A stretch of 64,000 nucleotides of DNA from Yuukianura sp. NJ FZ-2021 (Eukaryota). Positions 1 to 48,817 of the stretch are shown here, piece after piece. The translations under genes and the position numbers were made by a program. How positions within the stretch are numbered: position 1 is the first letter of the stretch; each line of letters starts with the position of its first letter. Location: contig CM102287.1 in NCBI GenBank assembly GCA_046563655.1, positions 9,424,001 to 9,488,000 of the forward strand, read 5' to 3'. The notes beneath the pieces are model-generated. The model was not told the DNA's origin and searched no databases. It worked only from the letters and a program-made list of their open reading frames with translations.

Positions 1-927
1 TTTTTGTCTCGCAAGTTCGATTTCTTCTGAGCAGTTGTTGATTCCTACAATCTGGACATCGGGGAAGTTTCTGGTCAAGTACAAAGCAAATTCTCCTGTA
101 CCACAACCAATGTCCAGAATACGCATGCCTGGACGCAGGTCAAGTTTCTGACTAAGGATTTCCATGTTCCTGGTGAGCGCTTGTGCAAGAATGATGGACG
201 AATCTATATCGTCGCCTGGTGTTGCAGCAGTCGTGTCCCAGTAGCCTGACGAGTACGGCGTACCCTCGGGCATTACTTGTATCATAATTTTGTCTAAAAA
301 CAAATTCAAAAAAAGAGTTGAAAATTGTTTTTTTAAGGTTGTTTTCATAATTTTGGAATCTTACTTGCAGGACCGGTTATCCAATCACTGTCAGGCTTAT
401 TGTCATCCCACGGTGTCTCGGCAGCATGTAAGTAAATCCAGTCCCGAGCAACGTGAAGCGGATTCCGGAAAGTGCCGAATCCTTGAAAAACGCGTTTCAT
501 CAAAAGCTGGATGTCCGAGCATTCCCACACGCCGTTCAAATAGCCTTCACCAACGGCAATTGACCCCTGAGTGGCCATGTTCAAAAATAAGTTGGGATCG
601 TTCACTACAAACTCAATTTCACGTGATTCGTCCGATCCGATTTGCTCAAGGTCAAGACCTTCTTCCGACCCTTAAAAAATTCAAATTCAAAATTTCCAAA
701 AACTCTGTCCTCCAAATACTTCAAAAATCGTTTTCTTTTTCCAAAAGTTAAGTACCTATGCTTGTGCCTTGTCCCAGGACCACTTTAACTCCAACTTTTG
801 CTAAACTTTTAGTTGCAATGAAATTCAAAACGAATCGCAACGGGCGGAGGATCAAGTACTGCACGAATGTTAAAATTCTTAAGAAAATTATGAGCAACCA
901 GAACACGTAAGTAAGTAAGGAATGCAT
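1..927 (-). CDS. Cyclopropane-fatty-acyl-phospholipid synthase (Cfa/CMAS)-like SAM methyltransferase, divergent; 3' part lies outside the window
   Basis: Hand-spliced exons 927-756, 670-365 and 293-<1 (GT-AG, frames consistent). Translation has a hydrophobic N-terminus (MHSLLTYVFWLLIIFLRILTFV), then VVNDPNLFLNMATQGSIAVGEGYLNGVWEC (cf. Cfa VxxPxFFxRVLxxGSLGLGESYMDGWWEC), PYSSGYW, and LSQKLDLRPGMRILDIGCGTG (SAM motif I). Confidence 0.8.
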
Positions 928-1742
928 TTTGAACTAAAGTTAAAGACTAATTTTAGGTTAGGTAAAGTTAGGCTTTTAGCCTAACAATTTGCTACCACAG
1001 TTGCTTACTCTCAGAGGTCACTCAGGTCAATGTTAGTCTAATTGAAGTAATTGTTGGAACTTTCCTAAGAAATTTACAACTGCCTTCATGACTCTCATGA
1101 CGCACACTCCAGGAAATGTTGGACATTTTACACTACCAAAAAGTACTTTGGGTAAAACCTAAACAGCATGAATTCCCACACTATAAAATAATAAAAGTTG
1201 AACGCAAGAATTATTGTTATAGTCTTTTAAAAAAAAGAAGTTAAAAAAAGTGTACAAGAAAACCATTTTACGAAAAACAAAATTTAATGAGCGCCTGAAC
1301 CGGTTTGGAAGGAACAATATGGAGGTAAAAGTAGATTACAGGTTATATAAAGCAACAAGTTTAAACTTCAAAACACAAAAACAAACAGAACATCTAAATT
1401 TAATTTGTTAATTGATTTTAACCAAGATTAGATTAGAAACAAGAAAGATGTTAAACAAGATTAAAAAATGTCGCCGTCCTTCGATTCTCAATGATCGAAA
1501 AGTTACTACTGTTGTTGTGTTACTATTTTTATTGCTTAAGTTCGTAGTTGCCTCCACCATGTTTAACAAAAAAAACTAATTAAATATTTCAATTAACTGA
1601 ACATAATGTAAAGTTAACATAACGTGGCTACCTAATATGCAAATTAGGTTTTTAACATAAACGATTGCCATCCGAAATGAAAATTAAATTGTAAAGTAGA
1701 TTTTTTTTTGTTCTTGAGAATGCTAAATAATTTTGTTTAAAT

Positions 1743-3204
1743 TTAAACATTCGCGGGCGTATCTGCCCGGGCGAAAACGACGCCATAGACTTTGTGTCCA
1801 ACGGAAAACGATTCGGCAAACCCGGTTTGCCGCAAGAGGGCGTCCCATTCGTCAGTTTTGAGCAAAGGGCAATTGTGTGTCCGAAATTCGTCACCCCATC
1901 GCCACCACCCGCCCGCAAAACCGAAACTGATTTCCAGGAATGTCGTACTTTCAAAAACTTCGCCAAGAACCAAAAGCCCGCCATCTTTCAAAGCCGTTCT
2001 GGTATGAATTAGAGTGTCATCCAAGTATTCCGTAGCGTGGTACACATCTGCTGCAAGCACAATGTCGTAAGTTCCCGGATCGATTCCTTGTTCCAGCAGA
2101 GGGCGCTCGATGTCAATTGTTTTGTAGTAAACAGGAATGGCCGGAAATTCTTCAGAGATTACCGCTTTGGTTTTGGAGACAAAGAAGTTGGAAATGTCTG
2201 AAAACGTGTATTCAACTGGAAGGCGGAGCTTAGTGAGAGCACGCATGAGTGGAATTGTTGTGCCACCAGTTCCACCTCCAATTTCCAAAATTTGAACTGG
2301 ACGACCAATGGAACTGAGTCCATTGTTGAGCAAAAATTGGACGTGATTGATAATTCCTTCAATTGTTGGAAATAGTTTGTAGTACTTCATGGTCATGCTG
2401 CGTTCGTAAAATCGTTTCGCGCCGGATTCGAAATTCGGCGAGTTTTCAGAAGGAAATAATACCGTGAGTCCGTTTTCCTTTCCAGTCATTACAGCATAAA
2501 TATACTGTCCTAAAATTCCCAAAAAATTTAGTAAAAATTCACTCGCGTATATGGCGCAAAAAAAAATTGTTCGCGCCTGCGAAATCCTTACCTACGTGGT
2601 TGGCAAACAGGGTTTCTTGATGACACTCTGGGTACTGAACCATTTCCGTTTGTAAATCCTTGATTTTCTTTTCAATGTCGTCTTTTGACGGCGCGGATTT
2701 GATTACGCGCCATTTCAGTTGCGGCTTAACAGCGATTTTCTCCAAAATTCCTCCAGTTTCTAAACGTTCAAAAATCGTAAGCAGAAGTAACTTGAATTCT
2801 TGGCGTAAGTTGTAACGACGAGAAAACGTTATTGAGTCAACGACTTCGCCGATCTCAGGAGTCCACGCCATTTCGACGAAGAATGCGCTACACATGTATT
2901 GATAAGCCAAATCGTTCAAAATTTCGAGCCCTTTCTGATGTGCTTTACTTTCGGAACTTTTAAACATAGTCTCAAATTGCCCCGAAATTGCGGATTTCAA
3001 AGCACCAAATTGCTGAGCAATAACTTTTTGGTTGTCCAATTCCTGTTCAAATTCGCAAGATTAAAAATTTACATTATGCAATTTAAAATTTCATTAAAAA
3101 TATTCTGATAATCAATTAGAACTTACAGTTTTTGAAGCATTTTCAGGCTGGACGCTGCCAGGCGTCGTATTGTAGTCTACAGTTACTGTTCCTTGATCTC
3201 CCAT
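1743..3204 (-). CDS. Stand-alone PKS/NRPS-type C-methyltransferase-like protein (431 aa)
   Basis: Exons 3204-3127, 3042-2592 and 2509-1743 splice in frame (1296 nt). Motifs ILEIGGGTGGTT, YTFSDISNFF, IDIERPLLEQGIDPGTYDIVLAADVYHAT, LKDGGLLVLGE and GGWWRWGDEFR...PLLKTDEWDALLRQTGF are typical of type I PKS cMT domains. Confidence 0.8.
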
Positions 3205-4159
3205 TGTTAACAAAAGTTAACGTAAACAAGGTTAGGGAAATAAACAAAGTTAACTAAACACGAACAGCTAGTTAACTGGACAGTACAGTTCACAATTAAG
3301 AAGATGATTAGCTACTCAAGGTGAAATTCGAAGTGTCGAGATTTGATCCAATCAAGTTTTTATATACTTCCTTGCCATAACTTCTTGTAGCTTCTTTGTT
3401 CCTACTCTCCTGCATATATTGAACAAAAAAAGTTGTTCAAAATTGCAAAAACTTCCAGTTCCCACTACTTTAACTTCCAAATCGTAAATCGCAATTGGCA
3501 AGAATTGCAAGAAGTCTAAACTAGGAAAAGCAAACAATCGTAATCGTAATTTTAACCAGTTTTCAAAGTTGCGGAGGGTAAGTAATCTTAAAAACACATA
3601 TTTTTCGTCATTTTTTGCTACAATTCGTTTCGGTAGCAAGTTTTTTACAAGTAAAACTAATTAAAAGTGAACTTTAAATCGCACTTGGCATAAATTAGTA
3701 AACTTCGACATGGGAATTAAAGTGTATTTTTATAACTTTAAGTTCCAGAGAAATGGCATAACATACACTCGGGAATTACAAATCACCCGCGGCTATGCTT
3801 TGGTTTCTCCAAAAATCTTTTGCATCTTTTCAAAAAAACTGACTTTTTTCTGAAAAAGAAACCACGTTGAAAAAGAGCACGAGGCGAAACATGAAAGAGG
3901 AACATTTTGCGGTAAAATCGTGGGAAAAACGTGAGTTGAATGTAAAACCACGAGATTGTTTCCAAAATTTCCATGTTTTTGGTTTCGTGTCTAATCTTAT
4001 GTGCGTCATCATCAACCGTGTGAATTTCAAACAAAAAAGGAACAACAAAAACCATGTTGAGGTGCACATTTGAATTCAAACCAATTAAAAACATATTAAT
4101 TAGGAAACCTATAATTTCAAAAACAACTTACTTTTGGAAAAGAAATTGGACATTCAACA

Positions 4160-4447
4160 AAAAAAAATCGTTCCTATAAGCTGGACGACGCCAATTTGAA
4201 AATTTACCGCCCAAAATTCAAACTTCACTTTTCAAATTGAGTGTAAACGCGGCAAAAATCAAAATACGCGTCTGTGGTTCCTTATCGCTACGAAAAAAAT
4301 GAGAATTGAAAAAAATTCGTTCGTATAAGCTTGAATGACGCCAATTTCAAAATTTCCCACCTAAAATTCAAAAGTTTTCAAAAACTTAGTGTAGTAAAAG
4401 TGGGAAAAACCAAAATAGGCGTTTTTCCTTATCCTAACGAAAAAAGA
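4160..4447. repeat. Degenerate direct duplication, about 150-bp unit x2
   Basis: aaaaatcgttcctataagctggacgacgccaatttgaaaattt (~4164) recurs as aaaaattcgttcgtataagcttgaatgacgccaatttcaaaattt (~4311); both copies end in ttccttatc...acgaaaaaa. Confidence 0.7.
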
Positions 4448-5613
4448 AGTTGATGTTTCAAGTTTTTCCAACTCGTGAACTTTGAACTTTATGAACTCCC
4501 ACAGAAAACGAGTTTTTGTAAACAAAAATATTAAATTTCTTTCTCGAGTACAAAAAACTTTTCAAAACCATTTCTAAAAAACTTGACAAACTTTTTGAGG
4601 TGTACTCAAAACTAGAAAAATATGCTTTCAACTAGAAATTTTAAAAAGTGAGAGTTGAAGTGGAGACCCTGAAAGCTTTTTGCTTACTTTCACTCTTTTT
4701 CTCTCCTTTTCCCCATCTTTTGTGCAGAGCTAATTTCTTGACATGTTACGCAACCTTCCTAATCAAAATGGACAGAAAATGTAAAGATTGAGTGAAAGCA
4801 GAGCTGTAGATATCAGTTTAGTACACACAAAAAGCAATACTTTTTCGTAAGCGTGGTTCCAGGAACAAAAAGTTCCTTTATCTCCCTACGCCCTGTCAAG
4901 AATCCGACGAAATCTCATTTCTTTTCTCCAGTTCCTCCCCTCGGAGTTCTCCGTTATAGAAATCCTGCCTTTCTTCTATTTTTATCTATTCCTCTACTTT
5001 CCATCTTCCGTTGTTCCCTGGATGCTGCCAAGATACCGTGTTGAGTGGTGAGAGTCCTGGAGACTGTGCTGGAACAACCAACAGTAAGTTCCTGGAGTCA
5101 AGACCCAGAATCAATACTTTCTCCAGCACAAAACTTTCTCCAGCACTCCAGTGTCTCTTCTCCAGTCAGTCTGTGGGAATCTCCGGGACGGAGAACAAGA
5201 AAATTCACATTTTGTTCCAAACACCTCCAGAACACGCTACATTTCACACGGTTCCTGTCTCCATCCATTCCACTCGTCCATCAGTCTTCATTCTAATTAA
5301 TCAATACACACACAAAATGAGATTTTCTCCAATATTTTACCACGGAAGAATCCAAACTTAGTACATTTTTAAGAAAAAAGTAAGTCCACCAACAGCATTT
5401 GTCTCAAAAATCTGTCAAAACTTACCAATTGAACAACAAAATCCTCAAGTTTTTAAATCCACCAGAAAATCCTTTTCCACCAGAAAAAGTTTTCTAATTG
5501 ACCAGGAAATCCGCGAAAACTTTTTAGTTCATCCGAATATCGTTGAAAAGTTCCCAAACCATCAAAATCTGAAACAAAATTTTGAAATTTTAATTTTTGT
5601 TTTGTTAGAAAAA

Positions 5614-6627
5614 ATGGAACGTGCTGATGGACCAGAATCGAGTCCAACAGAACAAGAACTAGAAGAAGCAGAGGCTAGCGACAACCTTGGAACTTTGAAA
5701 CCACCGCCACCGGCAGCAAAAGTCCGCTCACCGCGAAGTTACGCTCAACTTAAAGCCGAATTTAAAAAAGGCCGCGGAGTTACACTTACCAAAGAAGAAA
5801 GCGACATCTACTGGCGTGGGAAACGTGACGACTGGGAAGCCGAGAAACGGCGACATGAAGTCGCCGAGCGACGGTTTTGGGCCGCCTCAAAGACAGTTAC
5901 GCGTCACTTCTGTGTCAAAATCCTCTTTTACTCCGTCTATGGTCTCTGGACAGCCACTCCCATTGCTGGAATTGTCATCGGACTAATTTTTGTGTCCAGC
6001 GATAACTGTCCCGGTCAGCCCTCAATTGCTCCACTACTAATCGTCCTTGGCATTCTGTCGATATTTGTCGGTTTGAGTCTCGTCAAATCCCGGAAAAAAC
6101 CGAACCGGATCGAAACGGAAGTCGTTGAGTCTCCTCTGCCGGTCGACCCGGATTCTCCTCCTGCTGCTCCTAAAGATGTCGCTGATGAGCCACCGCTGCC
6201 GAACGGTGGAGCCGAAGAGCCGAACCAAGACGAAGACATCGAACTTGGACCAATTTCTGAAGAAACGTATACGCTTGGAGAGACGCTGGGCGTCTGTGCC
6301 GGTGGATTCCTCTTCTGTTTCATAGTGATTTTCAAATTTGCGCATCTCATTTTGTTCATAGCGACGAGTGTGATAGTGTATAGATTCGCCGGTAGAGTTC
6401 AATTTTCCAAGACGAGCTTATCCGATGAAGACATCCAGAGTGTGTACTGTAACGAAGTCTTGTTCAGATTTGCTTACTGGTACATCACTCTTGCGCTGGC
6501 AATTTTAGCACTTCTTTTACTCTGTTGTTGCTTCGGCTGCTGTACTTTTGCTGCATGGACTTCGTATGCCTCCCGAGAAGCAGTACGACAGCAACGGGAT
6601 CCACTGCAAGCCAACACGGAACCTTAA
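5614..6627 (+). CDS. TMEM272-like multi-pass membrane protein (single coding exon)
   Basis: ATG at 5614 follows a ttttgttag acceptor, implying a 5'UTR intron. Four hydrophobic segments; motifs GLIFVSSDNCPGQPSIAPLLIVLG and YCNEVLFRFAYWYI, plus a Cys-rich CCCFGCC after the last TM segment. Confidence 0.65.
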   Translation: MERADGPESSPTEQELEEAEASDNLGTLKPPPPAAKVRSPRSYAQLKAEFKKGRGVTLTKEESDIYWRGKRDDWEAEKRRHEVAERRFWAASKTVTRHFCVKILFYSVYGLWTATPIAGIVIGLIFVSSDNCPGQPSIAPLLIVLGILSIFVGLSLVKSRKKPNRIETEVVESPLPVDPDSPPAAPKDVADEPPLPNGGAEEPNQDEDIELGPISEETYTLGETLGVCAGGFLFCFIVIFKFAHLILFIATSVIVYRFAGRVQFSKTSLSDEDIQSVYCNEVLFRFAYWYITLALAILALLLLCCCFGCCTFAAWTSYASREAVRQQRDPLQANTEP

Positions 6628-7142
6628 AATTCGAGCTTTCACTTCTTAGAAATCTTCCAGGAATTTCCAACAATGTCGCTCCAAGAACGTTGTTCAAAAT
6701 TCCACACAAACCCTAGTGCAGGTCAGGTTCCTAACCCGCAGGTCAGAGGTCAGGTTCGGACCTGAATCCAATCCCAACATAAACTGTGAGTTTAGCTTAA
6801 AAATATCCTCGTGTAACTTGCCAAATGATATCAGAAGAAACTTCCAGTAATTGTGTATTTCCAGAACAAAGAAATGTAACAATAGAGAAACGTAATTATA
6901 CTTACTATATTATATAATATTCAATGAATATGATATAATATGTTCTTAGGCTTACCCAAAAGTTGAAAGAGGCTAAAAATCTACGTGAGACGCTCTAAAA
7001 AGTAACAATAAATTATAATTAGTTTTTTAGCCGTGACCTGTTGGACAGGTCACAGTCACAGATACATAGACACGTGACCTAAACAGATATTTGATCTAAA
7101 CAGGAGCCAATGGGTGAACTTCTTTTTAAAAACCGCCATTTT

Positions 7143-40289: not shown

Positions 40290-43200
40290 ATGAAAATGGA
40301 AGAATTCAAAATCCCGCGCCTGTCCACTTGTATACTTTGGACGATTTTGGTTGCCATGTTGTGTCCAGCTCCAACACTCCAGAACCAGTACTGTGCTATT
40401 ACGCCTCAACACACACTGTGCAAATTTCCAGTAAGTTCTTCAAATTTTATAATTTGCACAAATGATTTAGCACTATTTTGCAAACTCAAATTTTCATTGC
40501 ATAAATTCTTGAGTGGAACCTCCATATTTGCTCAATTAACACACTTTTGCTGCTAATTGTCCAATGTACATTCTGCATTATGTGCACATTTCAACTCAAC
40601 TGGTCAATGCAATATGATCCACAAGTAAAAAGGTCAAAAAGTGAAAATGTCAATCGTTACAAATAGTAGGTTGGCTTTTCTTATATTTGGACTTCTCACT
40701 TTTTGAACTTTTCGCTTGTTGATCTTTTTACTTTTTGACCCATTTGTTTTCGAGCAAATTACATGAAACCACTCCTACATTTTTGAAAACTTGTCAACCA
40801 GTTTCTGCTATCTATAAAAAGAACAAAGAACCTTTTTATTACGCAACTGTACAAAAATTTCCACTTTTTTAAAAGCCTGTTGACGTAAAAAATTACTTTG
40901 CAAATACAATTTTTTTTTCTGTAAAACTACGAATTATTATTTTTACCTGAAAGTGGTTTTTGACTTTTAATTGACATCTGAAAGGAATTGTTTAAAAATT
41001 AATTGCACTTTTAGGAAGCAAAAACACAAAATTTTTACAAAATTTGCAAATTCTTGCTTCAATAGAACGTGATCCTTTTTGCCATAAAAATTGCCATTTT
41101 GAGCAAAATTTACGAGTTGTTGTAAATTAAAAACTATTTTTAGAACTTTAGGTCTTGAAATTACACAAAAAAGAAAAGGAAAAACTTGTTTTAAAGTTTT
41201 GGAAAAATGTTATTTTTAATTTGCCAAATTTTGAAAATCTTTCATACCTTGCTGATTGTAGTTTATGGATCATCAAATTGCAATTGTGGAGTAATTAAAC
41301 TTTATAATTTTTCCCTTCCTTCTTTGGATGTTTGTTCCCAGTGACTTTTCAACTTACATTTTTTTGGTTATTCTTCTAACGTTTCATAAAACAAGTCACG
41401 ACAACCAGAAAACATGCTCCACCGCCCATAAGTACTTTGTCATAATTTTTATTCAAAAATGAAATTGAAAACGAAAAAAAGAGAACCTTGGAAAATGAAG
41501 ATCATTATGAGTCAAAACATAAACAAAATTTTTCAAGTCCAAAAATTAAAAATTTCACACCTACCACCCGTGCGCTTTTAGGCGCATCTTTGTACACGTA
41601 GGTAAACAATTCGCGTGTGCAGTAATTATCATTTTCGTGTCTCTTTTTTTTACTAAACACAAAGAAAAAATTACAAAGACACAAAAAACTTTTGTTACAA
41701 CCTTTCCTCGTGTGGCTAATTGCTAATAATGCTGATTTATAATTAAGTTTTGGAAATTTTGGCACTAAACTAGATTTTTTTTTGAAAATTTCAGGGAGTG
41801 GGTCCAAAATGTAAAACTCCGTTTGAAATTGGAATTCCTCCAGAAGATCGTGAACTGATTATGGACATGCACAATTCGTATAGAAGTAAAGTGGCGACTG
41901 GACGAGAGCTCAGGGGCAGTCCAGGGCCACAACCAACCGCAACGAACATGAAGGAAATGGTTAGGTTCTGCGCATAAACTTTTCAAACACTGCGCATCTT
42001 GCCAAAACGGACCAAGATTTCAATTTTTGATTTTGTTTTTAGGTTTGGGATGACGAATTGGCTAAAACTGCTCAACGACTTGCTGACCAATGCAAATACA
42101 CGCATGACTGTCTCGAGTGTCGCAAAGTCTGTAAGTTTGACGATAAATTTTTTTTTATTTTTTAAAAAACGCTTAACGCCGACCACAATTTTTGGTTTCA
42201 AAACCTTGGACTTTCATTGAGTTTGACAGTTTTGTTCGGTGAATGTCGATGACACGAAGCAGCAACCGTTTTTAAAATTCAAAAATTAAAATTTTGTATT
42301 TTTTTTTTTTGAAAATTTCAGCTCGTTTCCTGACTGGTCAAAATTTGTACCAGTTTAGTGAGAACATTCGGAGACCAAATTCGAATTGGCCGCAGGCCAT
42401 CAACGCTTGGTATGACGAAGTTGCGCAATGGAGTCCACGACACATCCAGTCATTCCAGTAAGATTCCACTGCGTTTGAACATAAAAATCATCGGAAAAAC
42501 AACTATAATTAATTAATTCCACAAAGTTAGGCTTTAAGAGTTAACACTTTAGATTAATTGCGTTGTTTTGCATTACACGTTTCTTGTTTTTTAGTTTTAT
42601 CAAACCACTTGGACATTATACTCAAATGCTTTGGGCTGACACGGATCGCCTTGGTTGTGGATACTCGTACTACAACGATGGGAAATGGAATCGGAAATTG
42701 TACATTTGCAACTACGGTGCTGCTGGGAACATCATTACACTACCGATGTACAAACAGGGGGCCCCTTGTTCACAGTGCCCTCAAGGGACCACATGCTCAT
42801 CCAAGTACCCTGGACTCTGTACAGGTACGCTAAAACAATCAAAACTTGAGCACAAAAGTGTAGCACTAGCAAGTGAAATGGTCAAAATAATTTGATCAAA
42901 AAGCGAAAAGATCAAAAAGTGAAATGTCAACCGTTACAAATATTTCATATACTATTACCAATATCTGTAGGTTCGGTTTGGCTAAGGGTTTCTTATGTTT
43001 AATTTGTTTCACTTTTTGACCTTTTTACTTTTTGACCAAATCGTTTTGGACCATTTTACACAGAACCAAAACAGTGCAATTTTATGAAAAATTTTTCCGC
43101 AGAAGTTTTTAACTAATTTTTTCTTTGTAGAATCCCGTTCGTCAGCAATCGTTTTTCCGACGTTTCAAACTCCCGCCAGACCACGACCGCGTCCAACAAC

Positions 43201-44068
43201 AACGACGACGACAACAACGACTACTACCACACCACGACCAAGCACAAAACCAACAGTAGCCATCAGCGAAATTGAATCAAACGATCTTCAATTTGATTTT
43301 CGCGCCAATCTTCCGTTTAAGAAAAACCGCCAAAACAACAACCGGTTTTTCTATGAAACTCAAAATACCGCTCAAAAACGAACTCAAGACGTACAGCCCC
43401 AAATTGCTTTTGTACCGACGAGGCTTCCACCACCTCCGCCAACCGCTGCAACTCAACAGACGTTTTTTCAACCAACTCGACAACAACAACAGCAGCCACA
43501 ACAACAAACACGATTCAATCCGATAACGTTTCCGGAACGAACCGAACCGGAGCCCAGAACGACCAGCTTCGTGGCTCACAATGTTCAACCGCCAGTTCAG
43601 CGTGTGGCTGACCCCAACTCAATACTCATCTACTGTGACTTTGACTTTGCCAAATGTCCGATCCGGTTTACCGGCGAACCGTGGAACTATACCGAAACAA
43701 ATACTAACAATTTCGGTCGTGGATTCAGCACGAGAGTACGGTCCGGTCAGACATCAAACCTCTTCATCCGAAGTCTCATGACAGCTAATGATGACGGTCA
43801 AGTTTGTGTATCGTTTCGGTACCTCAAACCAATTGTCCTTGGAGCTCCACCGCTCCGAGTTACGGCTGGAACGCTCAACCAAAAACCGAAAATTGTGGAC
43901 ATCAAAGAGGAATCGGCTTCACCAATTGACTGGCTCACGGCTACCATTCAATTTGAAAATTTACGCTCAAACTTCCTGGTTATCTTCCAAGTAGCCAGAA
44001 ACGAACTTGTACAACCAATTAATGTCGCCATTGACGACGTCCTGGTGACAAGGGGTCTCTGTCCTTAA
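40290..44068 (+). CDS. Secreted CAP/SCP (antigen-5-like) protein with Thr/Gln/Pro-rich linker and C-terminal MAM-like domain
   Basis: Signal peptide; YCAITPQHTLCKF; MHNSYRSKVATGRE...QPTATNMKEM/VWDDELAKTAQRLADQC; GQNL; AINAWYDEV; GHYTQMLWA; LYICNYGAAGN. The last exon 43131-44068 is in frame and encodes poly-Thr, poly-Gln, then YCDFD...C...CVSFRY...VAIDDV...C. Confidence 0.88.
40603..40770. mobile_element. MITE-like element, family A copy 3 (CAP gene intron)
   Basis: Internal aaaaggtcaaaaagtgaaaatgtcaatcgttacaaat; the right end ctttttgacccatttgttttcgagcaaattacatgaaacc is the reverse complement of the family terminus. Confidence 0.65.
42873..43067. mobile_element. MITE-like element, family A copy 4 (CAP gene intron)
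   Basis: aatggtcaaaataatttgatcaaaaagcgaaaagatcaaaaagtgaaatgtcaaccgttacaaat ... ctttttgaccaaatcgttttggaccattttacacagaacc. Confidence 0.7.
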
Positions 44069-45954: not shown

Positions 45955-48817
45955 ATGTCTCTCCTCGGCCTTTGCCTTCTTCTGGTTGTAGCCGCGTTCT
46001 TTCCTGGAACTGAAGCCTACCGCCGTGTTTTGTCATACAATCCGTATCACTATGGCCACAATACATCTTACATTCCAGTTTCTCCAGAAGCGATTCGCAG
46101 CGCAATAGCCTACGCAACTGACTACGAACGAAACGTTTTCGCTGATGACAGAGGCCTTGGACGGAACGAAGACCATCCATCGTACTGGGGAAACGGAATA
46201 GCTCAAGAGGGATACATCCAGAATGCCAAGGATTATGCAAATACTGGACATTTCATCACAGAAGTTGCGAAGTACTTGACCCGAGAGTAAGTTTGACCTT
46301 TGACCTCTCACTTTAGATTTACCTTCAAAGTATTTGGAGTAATTAACTCTTAGAATTTCAAGTAATTGACAATTTTCTGGAATTACAGGCACGGGTACAA
46401 TCCAGCTTCTAGTTACGATACTGGACTACCGCTGATTGAATACTTGGAATACTTGCCATCAGAGTACGGAAAGGTTTGCAGCTCTTACTACCAGAAATGC
46501 TATGTATCGAAGTATCGCAGCATGGATGGATCATGTAACAACGTTAAACATCCCTACTACGGTCAATCCAACACAATTCTCGGAAGAATTGCCATTCCAA
46601 GGTCAGTATCACTTTGACCTTCATAAACTTTTACCTTGAATGTCTGACTTGCCTCAATTAGTTTAACTTTTAATTAACTTTATGTCCTAAGCAGAAGTTA
46701 GATTGAGTTTTTATGATTGTAGATATGCAGATGAGATTCATTCTGTCAGAAGATCAGTCGATGGCTCACCACTGCCTCAACCTCGGTCCATCCGATTCCA
46801 AGCTCTGCCTGATAAGGACGTAGTAGAACCTAATGTGAACATGCTATTTGTTAACTTTGGACAGTTCATTACCCATGACCTTGTCCACACTCCGTTCTAC
46901 CAAGGTGAAGACGGACTCTTTCTTGATTGTTGCTATGGATACCGAGGAGGCTATGAACAAGTACATCCCAAATGTCTAGCAATTCCAATTCAGAGTGATC
47001 CATTTTATGCATCGAGAACGCCCGAACAGTGTTTGAATTTCGCAAGAGCCATTGTAGCACCAAACTACGGTTGCACCGTGGGATACGCCAATCCGGTCAG
47101 TCCGAATTTTTTAGAAATACTTTTGAGAAATTTTTCAACTAAAAATTTTATTAAAAAAAATTTTTTTAAATAAAAATTGAAATTTTTTCTAGATCAATTA
47201 CCAAACGTCGCATTTGGATCTGTCCCTACAATACGGTCGAACCCTCAATCAATCGCTGGAACTTCGTTTGGGACAAGATGGACTCCTGCGCACTAGCAAA
47301 GTTGGATACGAGACTCTTCTGCCGATTGACCTTGATGCAGAATGCTTCAAATCCTCAAGTACTTTTTGCTTCACTTCTGGTGACCTCCGGACCACAATTC
47401 ATCCTGGATTGACCTTGTTCCAAATCCTGTCAACTCGATTCCATAACCTGCTGGCCAGAAAACTACAACATCTGAATCCAGAGTGGGGAGATGAAGAACT
47501 TTTTCAAGAAGCTAGAAGAATCAATATTGCTGTGAACCAACACATTGTGTACAACGAGTACTTGCCACTACTCTTAGGTAAGGTCAAAGGTCAAAGATCA
47601 AGGTCAAGGTTAAAGATTAGGGTCAAAGGTCAAAATTTCAAGTACTACGTTAGATAGATGTATGAAATTTAACAATTTTTTTTACCGCCAACAGGAGACG
47701 AAGCGGTGTCCGAATATGGTTTGCTGTCCGAACCTGGGTACTCGAGAGACTATGACGAAAATGCCAAACCCTGGATCTATGCCGAATTTTCTGGATCAGC
47801 GTTCCGACTTCATACGTCCGTCTACGGTCAAATTTACTTGGCTGATGAAGATTACGACATTGAAGAGAAGTTGCCACTAGAAGACTTCTACAACTCTGCC
47901 ATTTTGTTCAAAGAGCCACAAAACTTCAATCGATTACTCCGCGGGTACATCCGAGCTCCGGAACGTCGGCATGACAAGTACTACGATCCAGCAATTTCCG
48001 ACTACTTGCTGAAGGATGAGAGACATTTTGGGTTGGACATTGGAGCTTTCAATATGCAACGTGGACGGGACTATGGATTGGAATCATACAACACTTACAG
48101 AAGCATTTGCGGACTGCGCAGAGCTCGAACTTTCAGCGATTTCTCCGATACGCATGATCCTCAGGTAAAAAAAAACAACACATTTTTTAGAACTAAACTT
48201 TTGCAATTTTGAATTTTTGGAAAACTTTTTAAACTTTTTTGAATTTGCCACTTTTAGACAATCGAAGACTTCCGACGCCTTTACCGACATCCGGATGACG
48301 TTGACTTGTACACTGCTGGAATCGCTGAGCGACATGTCGCTGGATCGCTGCTAGGCCCCACCCATCACTGCATCGTGTCGTTTCAATTTCAGCGTCTCAA
48401 GATTTCCGACCGCTTTTTCTACACGCATGCGTCTCAATATCATGCCTTTTCACCTAGTAAGTCCAGATTTCCTGAAAAATTGACTTTTTCGAAATTTTTG
48501 AGTTTTTTTGAAATCTTTGACATTTTTTTTTGTTTTAGGTCAACTTTCAACCATTCGTGGAATGACCATGAGCAGATTCCTCTGCCTCACAACATCTCTG
48601 ACGCACGTTCCAGTCCTCCCTTTCCAGACGCTCTCACCGCAGTAAGATTTTTTTTCTCAAAAAGGCTGAAACAGTGTTTGGACAAGCGACTAATTCCTCC
48701 TGTCTTGTTCTTTTGTCTAGAAATCCTCTCATCGCTTGCAGCGACTACGACCGAATCCCACGGTTGAAACTAAGGGCCTGGAAGAGTTCCGGTGGGACTT
48801 GGCTCTACGCTGTGTAG
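45955..48817 (+). CDS. Secreted animal heme peroxidase (peroxidase-cyclooxygenase superfamily, chorion peroxidase/peroxinectin-like)
   Basis: Signal peptide; YRSMDGSCNN; FGQFITHDL (distal Gln/His); GDLR (distal Arg); EELFQEARRI; AFRLH (proximal His); MQRGRDYGL; DVDLYTAGIAE; SDRFFY. Confidence 0.95.

Follow-up and report, generated by a model that had tools for sequence, protein, structure and literature searches.

A tandem pair of microbial-type C-methyltransferase and Cfa-type genes in an animal genome: candidates for the synthesis of branched or cyclopropane lipids

The first 3.2 kb of the 64-kb stretch of Yuukianura sp. DNA analysed here (hereafter the window, 64,000 nucleotides) carry two genes, which we call B and A in the order of their transcription (Table 1). 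An earlier note on this DNA had described two co-oriented, intron-bearing genes about 0.8 kb apart, and this description holds: both genes lie on the minus strand, they are separated by a gap of 815 bp, and their introns of 71-85 nt have GT..AG ends. One gene is Cfa-like and the other resembles the C-methyltransferase (cMT) domain of polyketide synthases (PKSs), an assignment already made in that note and on which the Pfam, NCBIfam and PDB searches agree. The spacer between the genes shows no ORF that matches a protein family, and no paralogue of A or B was found elsewhere within the 64-kb window. The adjacency of A and B does not by itself establish that they share a pathway.

Table 1. Features of the B-A gene pair in the window
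Feature	Position	Strand	Description
Gene B, whole	3204-1743	-	3 exons, 1296-nt CDS, 431 aa, start and stop present
Gene B exon 1	3127..3204	-	ATG 3204-3202, 26 codons, donor GTAAGT, spliced 431-aa frame unbroken
Gene B intron 1	3043..3126	-	84 nt, GT..AG, phase 0
Gene B exon 2	2592..3042	-	N-terminal helical (lid) part of C-methyltransferase
Gene B intron 2	2510..2591	-	82 nt, GT..AG, phase 1
Gene B exon 3	1743..2509	-	Class I SAM methyltransferase core; stop codon 1745-1743
Gene B exon 3 motifs			ILEIGGGTGG (SAM), His in AADVYHAT, Glu in LVLGEVF
B-A spacer	928..1742	-	815 bp, B stop (1743) to A ATG (927)
Gene A, visible part	927-1	-	3 exons, 257 aa, frame open at left window edge
Gene A exon 1	756..927	-	ATG 927-925; hydrophobic N-terminal anchor
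Gene A intron 1	671..755	-	85 nt, GT..AG, phase 1
Gene A exon 2	365..670	-	Cfa N-terminal domain
Gene A intron 2	294..364	-	71 nt, GT..AG, phase 1
Gene A exon 3 (first 97 codons)	1..293	-	Start of CMAS catalytic domain, SAM motif LDIGCGTG

Exon 3 of gene B matches the Pfam family Methyltransf_12 (8.9e-13, 49.2 bits for a cut-off of 30). The Pfam scan gave no family for exon 2, which aligns to the free-standing relatives described below and to the region N-terminal to the methyltransferase core of bacterial PKS cMT domains. When B was compared with bacterial PKSs by tblastn, the alignments extended from query residues 36-76 to about 410-431, a range that appears to cover both lid and core. All seven PDB matches of exon 3 at E ≤ 0.01 are PKS-type C-methyltransferases or their relatives. 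The top match is CurJ (4.5e-29, 104.8 bits), and the second-best, the fungal protein PsoF, comes close to it (5.7e-27, 97.9 bits); DisA and LovB follow below PsoF. A 'putative methyltransferase', PDB 7dmb, which we take to be AmxMT1, matches at 5.6e-24. The SAM motif of B is aligned with LLEIGAGTGG of CurJ and is invariant, or nearly so, in all 10 family members aligned. In the PDB alignment, the His-Glu dyad of CurJ has its counterpart in a His and a Glu of B, and both residues (H157 and E183 in the family alignment) are invariant in all 10 aligned members; a catalytic role of this dyad in cMT domains is described in PMC9821293. No membrane anchor was detected in B by the hydrophobicity scan. 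B is not embedded in a KS/AT/ACP megasynthase: its 431-aa ORF is complete, with ATG and stop, and there is no ketosynthase within the window, so that we consider it a free-standing relative and not a PKS domain.

The hydrophobic segment encoded by exon 1 of gene A has a Kyte-Doolittle mean of 2.37 over 19 residues from residue 4. Exon 3 matches the Pfam family CMAS (1.8e-10, 41.1 bits for a cut-off of 27) over profile positions 31-103 of 273 only. Exons 2 and 3 match the NCBIfam model PRK11705 (Cfa) collinearly, exon 2 at positions 28-81 with an E-value of 6.7e-8. The PDB search likewise places exon 2 on residues 35-98 of E. coli Cfa (6bqc; E 3.4e-5) and exon 3 on residues 151-209 (4.5e-10). 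In the Atlas clusters nearest to exon 2, about a quarter of the members carry DUF7884. The clusters nearest to A are all bacterial CMAS or DUF7884, a likeness that, by the tool's own caveat, provides no evidence of transfer. A word-indexed protein search with exons 2 and 3, run in the 'longer' length class of a collection that also lacks the L001 proteins introduced below, returned 33 and 180 candidates, respectively, and no relative among them.

The same B-then-A pair is found on one strand of a 10-kb metagenome contig, L001. Synteny in a relative was one of the points on which the earlier note had let its proposal stand or fall, and here order and strand are the same and the four introns compared share codon position and phase. 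Introns 1 and 2 of A and intron 2 of B interrupt the same codons in the same phase; for B intron 1, the acceptor in L001 lies before the equivalent codon, also in phase 0. The P0001 protein begins at the boundary of B intron 2. The proteins of the window and of L001 are 58% identical for B and 45% for A. L001_A continues for a further 180 codons in one exon up to its stop, and by analogy about 180 codons of gene A probably lie beyond the window edge, where the catalytic half of the enzyme is located. In L001, an animal-type FAS ketosynthase starts 1.2 kb upstream of B on the opposite strand, head-to-head with it (PF00109, 1.5e-47; mouse, pig and human FAS, about 2e-58). This FAS link comes from the one contig L001, because no ketosynthase of FAS or PKS type was found in the window, including the 60 kb upstream of B (best E 0.14). 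The suggestion that a cluster might run on past the left edge of the window finds no echo in the relative: no recognisable biosynthetic gene occurs in the 3 kb of L001 beyond gene A, and the additional FAS-like gene lies upstream of B instead.

The complete L001_A protein allowed a closer view of the Cfa-type enzyme. It matches CMAS over profile positions 27-273 (2.5e-27, 96.4 bits) and E. coli Cfa at 2.8e-26 (95.6 bits), all other PDB matches reaching at most 52 bits; DUF7884 stays below the Pfam threshold (18.2 for a cut-off of 27). E. coli Cfa has the same two-domain architecture, and L001_A is collinear with it over 364 aligned positions at 25.5% identity. The animal protein differs from it in a hydrophobic stretch of about 45 residues added at its N terminus and in two substitutions in the active site. 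The residues C139, E239, H266 and Y317 form the bicarbonate site and are described as strictly conserved in non-plant enzymes (PMC3132707). All four are kept in the 12 best proteobacterial Cfa proteins (12 of 12), and Cys139 and His266 are also present in E. coli Cfa. Position 139 is Ser both in gene A and in L001_A. Glu239 and Tyr317 are kept in L001_A and position 266 is Gln (Asn in a three-sequence alignment); the window stops before positions 239-317. The canonical C139/E239/H266/Y317 signature is thus absent from A and L001_A. Two more distant bacterial CMAS paralogues, L164 and L165, also have Gln at position 266, together with Ser or Ala at position 139. The altered bicarbonate site could mean that A catalyses a reaction different from that of canonical Cfa.

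The two substitutions have a counterpart in plants. According to PMC3132707, the active cotton cyclopropane synthases GhCPS1 and GhCPS2 carry the same C139S and H266Q changes, keep E239 and Y317, and are membrane enzymes. Likened to A here by their description only, they differ by a long N-terminal extension, with active-site residues numbered about 595-794 (PMC3132707). The fungal ceramide C9-methyltransferase is another member of the Cfa family; it has transmembrane segments at its N terminus and carries a conserved EHV motif (PMC9325734). Where the fungal enzyme has EHV, L001_A has EHI; in this comparison, again by description only, A shows one strong hydrophobic segment and the Neurospora enzyme two (PMC9325734). 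A might be no cyclopropane synthase at all, and be instead a relative of the C9-methyltransferase or of another CMAS-family methyltransferase, taken over from a fungus, that methylates sphingoid bases or acyl chains. The N-terminal hydrophobic anchor of A, the EHI of L001_A and the membrane segments and EHV motif of the fungal enzyme (PMC9325734) speak for this, as do the loss from A and L001_A of the Cys139 and His266 kept in all 13 canonical bacterial Cfa proteins examined and the similar residues of L164 and L165. We nevertheless consider it unlikely: A keeps the Cfa N-terminal domain, E. coli Cfa is by far the best PDB match, and the plant synthases show that a cyclopropane-forming enzyme can have the same Ser and Gln (PMC3132707).

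The surroundings of the pair are those of an animal genome. Eight of the 12 ORFs scanned in the neighbourhood have a Pfam family, and the neighbours include C2H2 zinc fingers, a DM10 domain, a protein kinase, CAP, MAM and an animal haem peroxidase. The earlier note had called them ordinary arthropod genes; here they can be called animal genes, and the sole named close relative of B is a protein of the springtail Folsomia candida. DNA depth is even over A, B and their flanks in four runs from two studies, the run of the second study covering the region at about 95% identity. Overlapping read contigs span positions 3187 to 6219, from the 5' end of B to the next animal gene. GC3 is 0.44-0.49 in A and B and 0.32-0.46 in the neighbours, so that the pair falls within this range or just above it. 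A and B are under purifying selection; of the 25 read variants listed in exons, 18 are synonymous and 7 non-synonymous.

These observations bear on whether the region might be microbial contamination or a chimeric assembly. Both protein families are typical of microbes, and the three best DNA runs share a single sample, perhaps the very one that was assembled; to this extent such an artefact is conceivable. Against it stand the four spliceosomal-type introns with GT..AG ends, the even depth over genes and flanks, the contig tiling, the coverage by a run of the second study, and the independent contig L001, in which the pair is joined to an animal-type FAS gene. Together with the neighbour-like GC3, they make contamination very improbable, in line with the argument of the earlier note from introns and genomic context.

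A protein search with B against 1.84 billion representatives gave 8930 matches. Among the best 150 of these, only five are shorter than 1000 aa and the others measure 1860-7997 aa. Per-domain scores against B are at most 134 bits for the giant proteins, and 173-362 bits within the free-standing group. Of the ten best giant matches four carry names, and all four are bacterial. At 55 other bacterial or metagenome loci among the 60 best listed, the B match lies inside an ORF of 778-3807 aa; among all loci scored with B, a complete ORF of less than 700 aa occurs only at L001-L004. In a B tree of 64 rows, which is unrooted, comes from a quick search and holds no fungal, protist, animal or other eukaryotic PKS rows, eight free-standing proteins form one clade (SH-aLRT 98) that is nested among bacterial PKS cMT domains, with SH-aLRT values of 87 and 94 at the next nodes around it. 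The clade includes the Folsomia candida protein, the only named animal relative found. A Hydrogenophaga fragment (P0005) was considered as a free-standing bacterial relative of B, and is grouped by the tree with PKS domains outside the B clade. We rejected a derivation of B from the pseudo-methyltransferase of animal FAS, since the seven PDB matches at E ≤ 0.01 include neither a FAS nor an AFPK chain.

These comparisons support a horizontal, non-animal origin of B, and the microbial origin proposed in the earlier note gains support for this gene: B is nested among bacterial cMT domains, and animal FAS is absent from its seven PDB matches. Most likely, B descended from a cMT domain of a bacterial-type PKS, was acquired horizontally and now stands alone. 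With a tree that is unrooted, quickly searched and free of fungal and other eukaryotic PKS domains, however, B may also have come from a fungal donor, for which the nearly level scores of PsoF and CurJ (97.9 vs 104.8 bits) would speak, or have arisen by fission of a PKS acquired earlier. For A, a horizontal origin is plausible at best. Its best match in 401 Pseudomonadota genomes reaches 102 bits and 33% identity, and there is no close donor among them; its active-site pattern, too, is unlike that of the bacterial Cfa proteins examined. This missing donor is one of the points in favour of the view that both genes come from ancient metazoan families that were passed on vertically and have disappeared from most animals, with no transfer involved; the introns, the animal-like composition and the conserved synteny would likewise fit a long residence in animal genomes. 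We regard such a history as quite improbable, since the B clade is nested among bacterial PKS domains, since a PDB search with B (E ≤ 0.01) picks up no animal FAS or AFPK chain, and since its only named animal relative belongs to the springtails, a group reported to have many foreign genes (PMC5490193).

Horizontal acquisition would place the pair in known company. The Folsomia candida genome contains PKS, NRPS and beta-lactam clusters of microbial type, integrated and with introns (PMC5490193, PMC10764717), and, like A and B, these foreign biosynthetic genes of springtails are microbial-type metabolism genes with introns in the genome of a soil arthropod. The Folsomia homologue of B may be listed as horizontally transferred in the supplement of PMC5490193. 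In our literature search, which covered this supplement in part only, no description was found of an animal cyclopropane synthase, nor of a cMT gene in tandem with a Cfa-like one.

Taken together, the data lead us to think it fairly probable that the first 3.2 kb of the window hold two functional, microbial-type genes, turned into normal animal genes with introns and kept as a tandem pair, with cMT and Cfa-type roles. B would be a soluble, free-standing C-methyltransferase with an N-terminal lid, a SAM site and a His-Glu dyad. If it works like the CurJ cMT, PsoF and AmxMT1, B would methylate the alpha carbon of a carrier-bound beta-ketoacyl thioester with SAM as the donor; its partner in trans would be a FAS-like enzyme or a PKS, and methyl-branched chains would result. 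A point against this reading is that the methyl branches of insect hydrocarbons usually derive from methylmalonyl-CoA, not from SAM. A would be a membrane-anchored two-domain Cfa-type enzyme that adds a SAM-derived methylene or methyl group to a cis double bond in the acyl chain of a membrane lipid, and its product would be a lipid with a cyclopropane ring or with a methyl or methylene group in mid-chain. These are the substrates that we infer for the two enzymes, and on the basis of their sequences we propose the gene pair as candidate makers of branched or cyclopropane lipids.

Known enzymes of the cMT type differ from B in their setting. The cMT domains of modular type I PKSs (CurJ, DisA, AprA MT2) share with it the sequence family, the lid and core, the SAM motif and the His-Glu pair, but are located inside a synthase of at least 778 aa, whereas the 431 aa of B form a protein of their own, the product of an animal gene with introns. 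The trans-acting enzymes PsoF and AmxMT1 work on carrier-bound beta-ketoacyl chains (PMC9821293). PsoF is fused to a monooxygenase and AmxMT1, of anammox, is encoded in a bacterial FASII cluster; in contrast, B is animal-encoded and lies, in L001, beside an animal-type FAS gene. B would add a case of one domain of a microbial megasynthase persisting in an animal as a spliced gene that stands alone.

A and B may serve one pathway, leading for instance to cuticular or defensive lipids. In its most specific form, A, B and the head-to-head FAS-like synthase of L001 would constitute an animal pathway for cyclopropane-containing, methyl-branched long-chain lipids such as the sarekensane of isotomid springtails, a proposal that we put forward as tentative and, in this full form, unlikely. 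Sarekensane, from the springtail Vertagopus sarekensis, is a hydrocarbon that bears a single methyl branch and two cis-cyclopropane rings, and a recent description from this springtail added cyclopropane hydrocarbons to the lipid classes known in arthropods (PMC10825826). The available text of that report names no enzyme or biosynthetic gene for sarekensane, and the word 'methyltransferase' occurs in it 0 times. The A/B pair and the FAS-like synthase of the relative would thus offer concrete candidate genes for the cyclopropane hydrocarbons of springtails. If the proposal is true, gene A would be the first animal cyclopropane synthase, and B, acting in trans, would return the capacity for SAM-dependent branching to a FAS that has lost the activity of its own methyltransferase domain. 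The combination of A and B with a FAS gene also suggests a possible animal biosynthetic gene cluster assembled from foreign and native parts.

The pair might also be neighbours by history only and belong to unrelated pathways, B tailoring the product of one of the horizontally acquired PKSs reported for springtails and A modifying membrane phospholipids or sphingolipids for stress tolerance. The 30 type I PKS clusters reported for the Folsomia genome, many of which were acquired horizontally, provide other possible partners for B (PMC5490193); the window has no ketosynthase beside the pair, and A has a membrane anchor while B has none. Separate pathways nevertheless seem to us somewhat unlikely, given that order, strand and the compared intron positions have been kept at protein identities as low as 58% for B and 45% for A, and that a FAS-like gene stands head-to-head with B in L001. 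Should A and B act separately, the two would be a further instance of foreign metabolic genes carried by soil animals, a phenomenon already known. The Folsomia relative of B bears at NCBI the name of the fungal protein 'SdnL', an enzyme of the free-standing or trans-acting cMT type.

The earlier note had described two co-oriented, intron-containing methyltransferase genes at the left end of the window; its coordinates, orientation, spacing and introns for both genes are correct, and the spliced gene models agree with them. Gene B, a free-standing gene of the PKS C-methyltransferase (cMT) type, and gene A, a Cfa/CMAS-like gene, both lie within the first 3204 bases and are spaced by 815 bp. The frame of gene A is open at base 1, and the window shows its first 257 codons only. 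The remaining window contains animal-type genes (C2H2 zinc fingers, a DM10 protein, a kinase, CAP, MAM and animal haem peroxidase); a Pfam family was found for 8 of the 12 ORFs scanned across it, and no ketosynthase-like sequence occurs in the whole 64 kb. The next gene upstream of B encodes a product with stretches that are acidic, proline-rich or hydrophobic and with a Cys-rich end, for which no Pfam family was found. Upstream of gene B, a non-coding stretch of 2.1 kb contains a direct repeat. The CAP/MAM gene and the haem peroxidase gene are ordinary secreted-protein genes, with no relation to the methyltransferase pair.

Coordinates of the methyltransferase genes and of other features in the window, on the metagenome contig L001 and on L005, a further locus with a relative of gene B
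Feature	Sequence	Position	Strand	Details
Gene B	window	3204-1743	minus	3 exons (3204-3127, 3042-2592, 2509-1743); ATG at 3204, stop 1745-1743; 431 aa
Gene B introns	window	between its 3 exons	minus	2, GT..AG, 84 and 82 nt
Gene A	window	927-1	minus	exons 927-756, 670-365, 293-1; ATG at 927
Gene A introns	window	between its 3 exons	minus	2, GT..AG, 85 and 71 nt
Next gene upstream of B	window	5617-6627	plus	single long ORF, 336 aa from first Met
41-nt direct repeat	window	4182-4222 / 4332-4372		85% identical, copies 150 nt apart
CAP and MAM domain gene	window	42545-44068	plus
Animal haem peroxidase gene	window	46691-48767	plus	multi-exon
FAS or AFPK gene start	L001	2-580	minus	head-to-head with B relative; ketosynthase N-terminus, PF00109 1.5e-47, DTACSSS active-site motif
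ORF downstream of A relative	L001	7429-7773	minus	114 aa; RiboL-PSP 0.0015, Swt1-like 0.0021, both below cut-off
Sequencing-adapter-like ends	L005	1-50, 1097-1225		translating as LFPYTTLFRS and GVQTCALPIF

Exon 3 of gene B encodes a class I SAM methyltransferase (Pfam Methyltransf_12, 8.9e-13). Searched against all PDB chains, it gave seven matches at E ≤ 0.01, all of them polyketide C-methyltransferases or near relatives: the CurJ cMT was the best (4.5e-29), followed by PsoF (5.7e-27) and DisA (2.3e-26), then by 7dmb ('putative methyltransferase'), LovB, the citrinin PKS and AprA MT2. Animal FAS and sea-slug AFPKs, which are in the PDB library searched, were absent from the matches at this threshold. 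The SAM motif ILEIGGGTGG is invariant across ten aligned members of the family, and so are the His and Glu of B that align with the CurJ dyad, described in PMC9821293 as catalytic on carrier-bound β-ketoacyl chains. The tblastn alignments of B with bacterial PKS genes start at B residues 36-76, so at the sequence level B corresponds to a whole cMT domain including the N-terminal lid. The protein has no membrane segment. Gene B carries all the sequence hallmarks of an active PKS C-methyltransferase.

A word-indexed search with B returned four close proteins (50-68% identity), the next one being at 31%, and 1.84 billion representatives searched exhaustively with HMMER gave 8930 matches. Among the best 150 of these, five are shorter than 1000 aa; the rest, 1860-7997 aa long, each match in two or three places. 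These giant proteins score at most 134 bits per domain, versus 173-362 bits inside the free-standing group, to which Folsomia candida XP_035701389.1 belongs ('polyketide methyltransferase sdnL-like'; 42% identity to gene B over 392 residues). Four of the ten giants whose single domains score best bear organism names, all of them bacterial (Methylocaldum, two records of Chromobacterium and a bacterial MAG). Scanning metagenome contigs and one genome per prokaryotic species yielded 160 loci. A complete ORF below 700 aa was present only in L001-L004 among all loci scored, L005 is an adapter-flanked contig with 338 codons, and the 55 other loci shown among the 60 best have their match within an ORF of 778-3807 aa. 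L005, a divergent free-standing B relative of 56% GC, probably represents a short transcript or insert contig left untrimmed. L004 and the protein P0003, B relatives with 44% identity over their full length, come from contigs of ~1.33 kb on which the coding frame is unbroken across both B intron positions; these contigs are either mRNA-derived or intron-less genes of other organisms.

In a quick, unrooted IQ-TREE tree (LG+G4; 64 rows, 364 columns), in which bacterial rows were chosen as best matches and which is without fungal, protist or animal PKS rows, the eight free-standing B proteins form one clade (SH-aLRT 98) that nests among the cMT domains of bacteria; it is followed by branches of a gammaproteobacterial MAG (87) and two cyanobacteria (94). 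The earlier note had proposed that both methyltransferases were horizontally acquired. For gene B, the tree and the PDB matches support this reading: a non-animal, PKS-derived origin appears well supported, and we regard B as likely to be foreign. A bacterial donor is favoured by these comparisons but not established; PsoF, a fungal enzyme, scores almost as high as CurJ against B.

By its domain matches, gene A clearly belongs to the Cfa/CMAS superfamily and has its two domains arranged as in Cfa. Exon 1 encodes a strongly hydrophobic N-terminal segment, which E. coli Cfa lacks; exon 2 aligns with residues 35-98 of E. coli Cfa, in its N-terminal domain (3.4e-5), and with PRK11705 positions 28-81; for exon 3 the matches are to Pfam CMAS (1.8e-10) and to residues 151-209 of E. 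coli Cfa (4.5e-10). Because the catalytic half of gene A falls outside the window, we used for this half the A relative on contig L001. The spliced product of this relative, 433 aa long, has 45% identity to the portion of gene A seen in the window and aligns collinearly to 364 positions of E. coli Cfa with 25.5% identity; its E-values are 2.5e-27 for CMAS and 2.8e-26 for Cfa. According to PMC3132707, non-plant enzymes strictly conserve four bicarbonate-site side chains, and these (C, E, H and Y) are all present in E. coli Cfa and in the 12 best proteobacterial Cfa proteins. In the L001 protein, E239 and Y317 are kept and H266 is replaced by Gln, while C139 is replaced by Ser in both animal proteins. 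Judged by these residues, gene A is not a canonical bacterial Cfa. Cotton GhCPS1 and GhCPS2, which are active cyclopropane synthases, are reported to carry the identical Ser and Gln (PMC3132707); both residues are found, too, in distantly related bacterial CMAS paralogues whose function is unknown. Of 401 Pseudomonadota genomes searched, 85 (one of them unpublished) have a match at E ≤ 1e-15, and no match exceeds 102 bits or 33% identity. We give a foreign origin of gene A about an even chance.

The earlier note had suggested looking for synteny in related species, and the pair in B-then-A order, on one strand and with matching introns, is indeed present on L001, a metagenome contig of 10,070 bp. 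Its B relative is 58% identical to gene B in the tree alignment, and its A relative lies 2.1 kb downstream. Both A introns, as well as the B introns compared (the intron 1 acceptor and the whole of intron 2), agree in codon and phase between L001 and the window. On the opposite strand, ~1.2 kb upstream of the second exon of B, a gene starts that opens with a ketosynthase. Its best matches are the mouse, pig and human fatty acid synthases (~2e-58, aligned from their residue 3-5), versus ~3e-44 for sea-slug AFPKs and 1.5e-28 at best for microbial PKSs; its 193 residues on the contig do not separate a true FAS from a FAS-like PKS. Since this start best matches animal FAS, L001 is animal DNA, and the pair has stayed together through substantial divergence. 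L001 is the strongest independent evidence for integration and conservation. The 3 kb beyond the A relative contain nothing but a weak HEPN-like ORF.

Positions 1-7000 of the window are covered by four DNA runs from two studies. The three deep runs, the best of the four, come from one sample that may be the assembly source; they cover 30 of 30 depth bins, and the methyltransferase genes are sequenced to much the same depth as their flanks. In the fourth run, which belongs to the other study and bears another organism label, 27 of 30 bins have coverage, with lower identity. Overlapping contigs tile 3187-6219, from the first exon of B into the next animal gene. The GC3 values of A (0.49) and B (0.44) are close to those of neighbouring exons (0.32-0.46). 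Among the 40 best-supported of 378 read variants, 25 fall in A/B exons (18 synonymous versus 7 non-synonymous) and none there is a frameshift; the exon variants show the pattern of genes under purifying selection. Polymorphism over this region is very high (378 substitution and 75 indel sites), suggesting pooled individuals or a very heterozygous genome.

The earlier note's observation thus holds, and its interpretation is borne out in part. Genes A and B are very probably real, selected, animal-integrated members of the Cfa/CMAS and PKS cMT families, forming a conserved pair. We also lean towards the fuller statement that two functional microbial-type genes turned into spliced animal genes and were kept in tandem. 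Foreign biosynthetic genes (PKS, NRPS, β-lactam genes) are established in springtails according to PMC5490193, and the pair would be a further case of this known phenomenon, in which a soil animal has domesticated metabolic genes of foreign origin. NCBI has already given a name to the Folsomia relative of B, free-standing cMT-type enzymes are known (PsoF, AmxMT1), and plants provide known eukaryotic cyclopropane synthases. In the literature searched we found no description of a tandem cMT and Cfa-like pair, no animal Cfa-type gene proposed for cyclopropane lipids and no report of a FAS-like gene adjoining such tailoring genes.

Known free-standing cMT relatives are described as acting in trans, methylating carrier-bound β-ketoacyl intermediates (PMC9821293). 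In the simplest model, B would likewise methylate in trans the β-ketoacyl chains on a host FAS-like or PKS enzyme, giving methyl-branched chains, and a membrane-anchored A would transfer a methylene group, in a SAM-dependent reaction, to a cis double bond in an acyl chain carried by a lipid. A could thereby form a cyclopropane, like the E. coli and cotton enzymes, or else yield a methyl or methylene product, like other CMAS enzymes and fungal ceramide C9-methyltransferase. Conserved adjacency, together with the FAS-like neighbour in one relative, hints at a single lipid-tailoring pathway for A and B, which we consider less likely than not. The chemistry of one springtail is suggestive. The isotomid Vertagopus sarekensis is reported to be coated with sarekensane, cis,cis-3,4,13,14-bismethylene-24-methyldotriacontane, a molecule thought to derive from the fatty-acid pathway, whose two cyclopropanes and one methyl branch fit the proposed activities of A and B; the available portions of these accounts name no enzyme for it (PMC10825826, PMC11321324). 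The link to springtails is only that the sole named relative of B is a springtail protein. Other springtails are described in the same sources as differing from insects in the wide spacing of their methyl branches.
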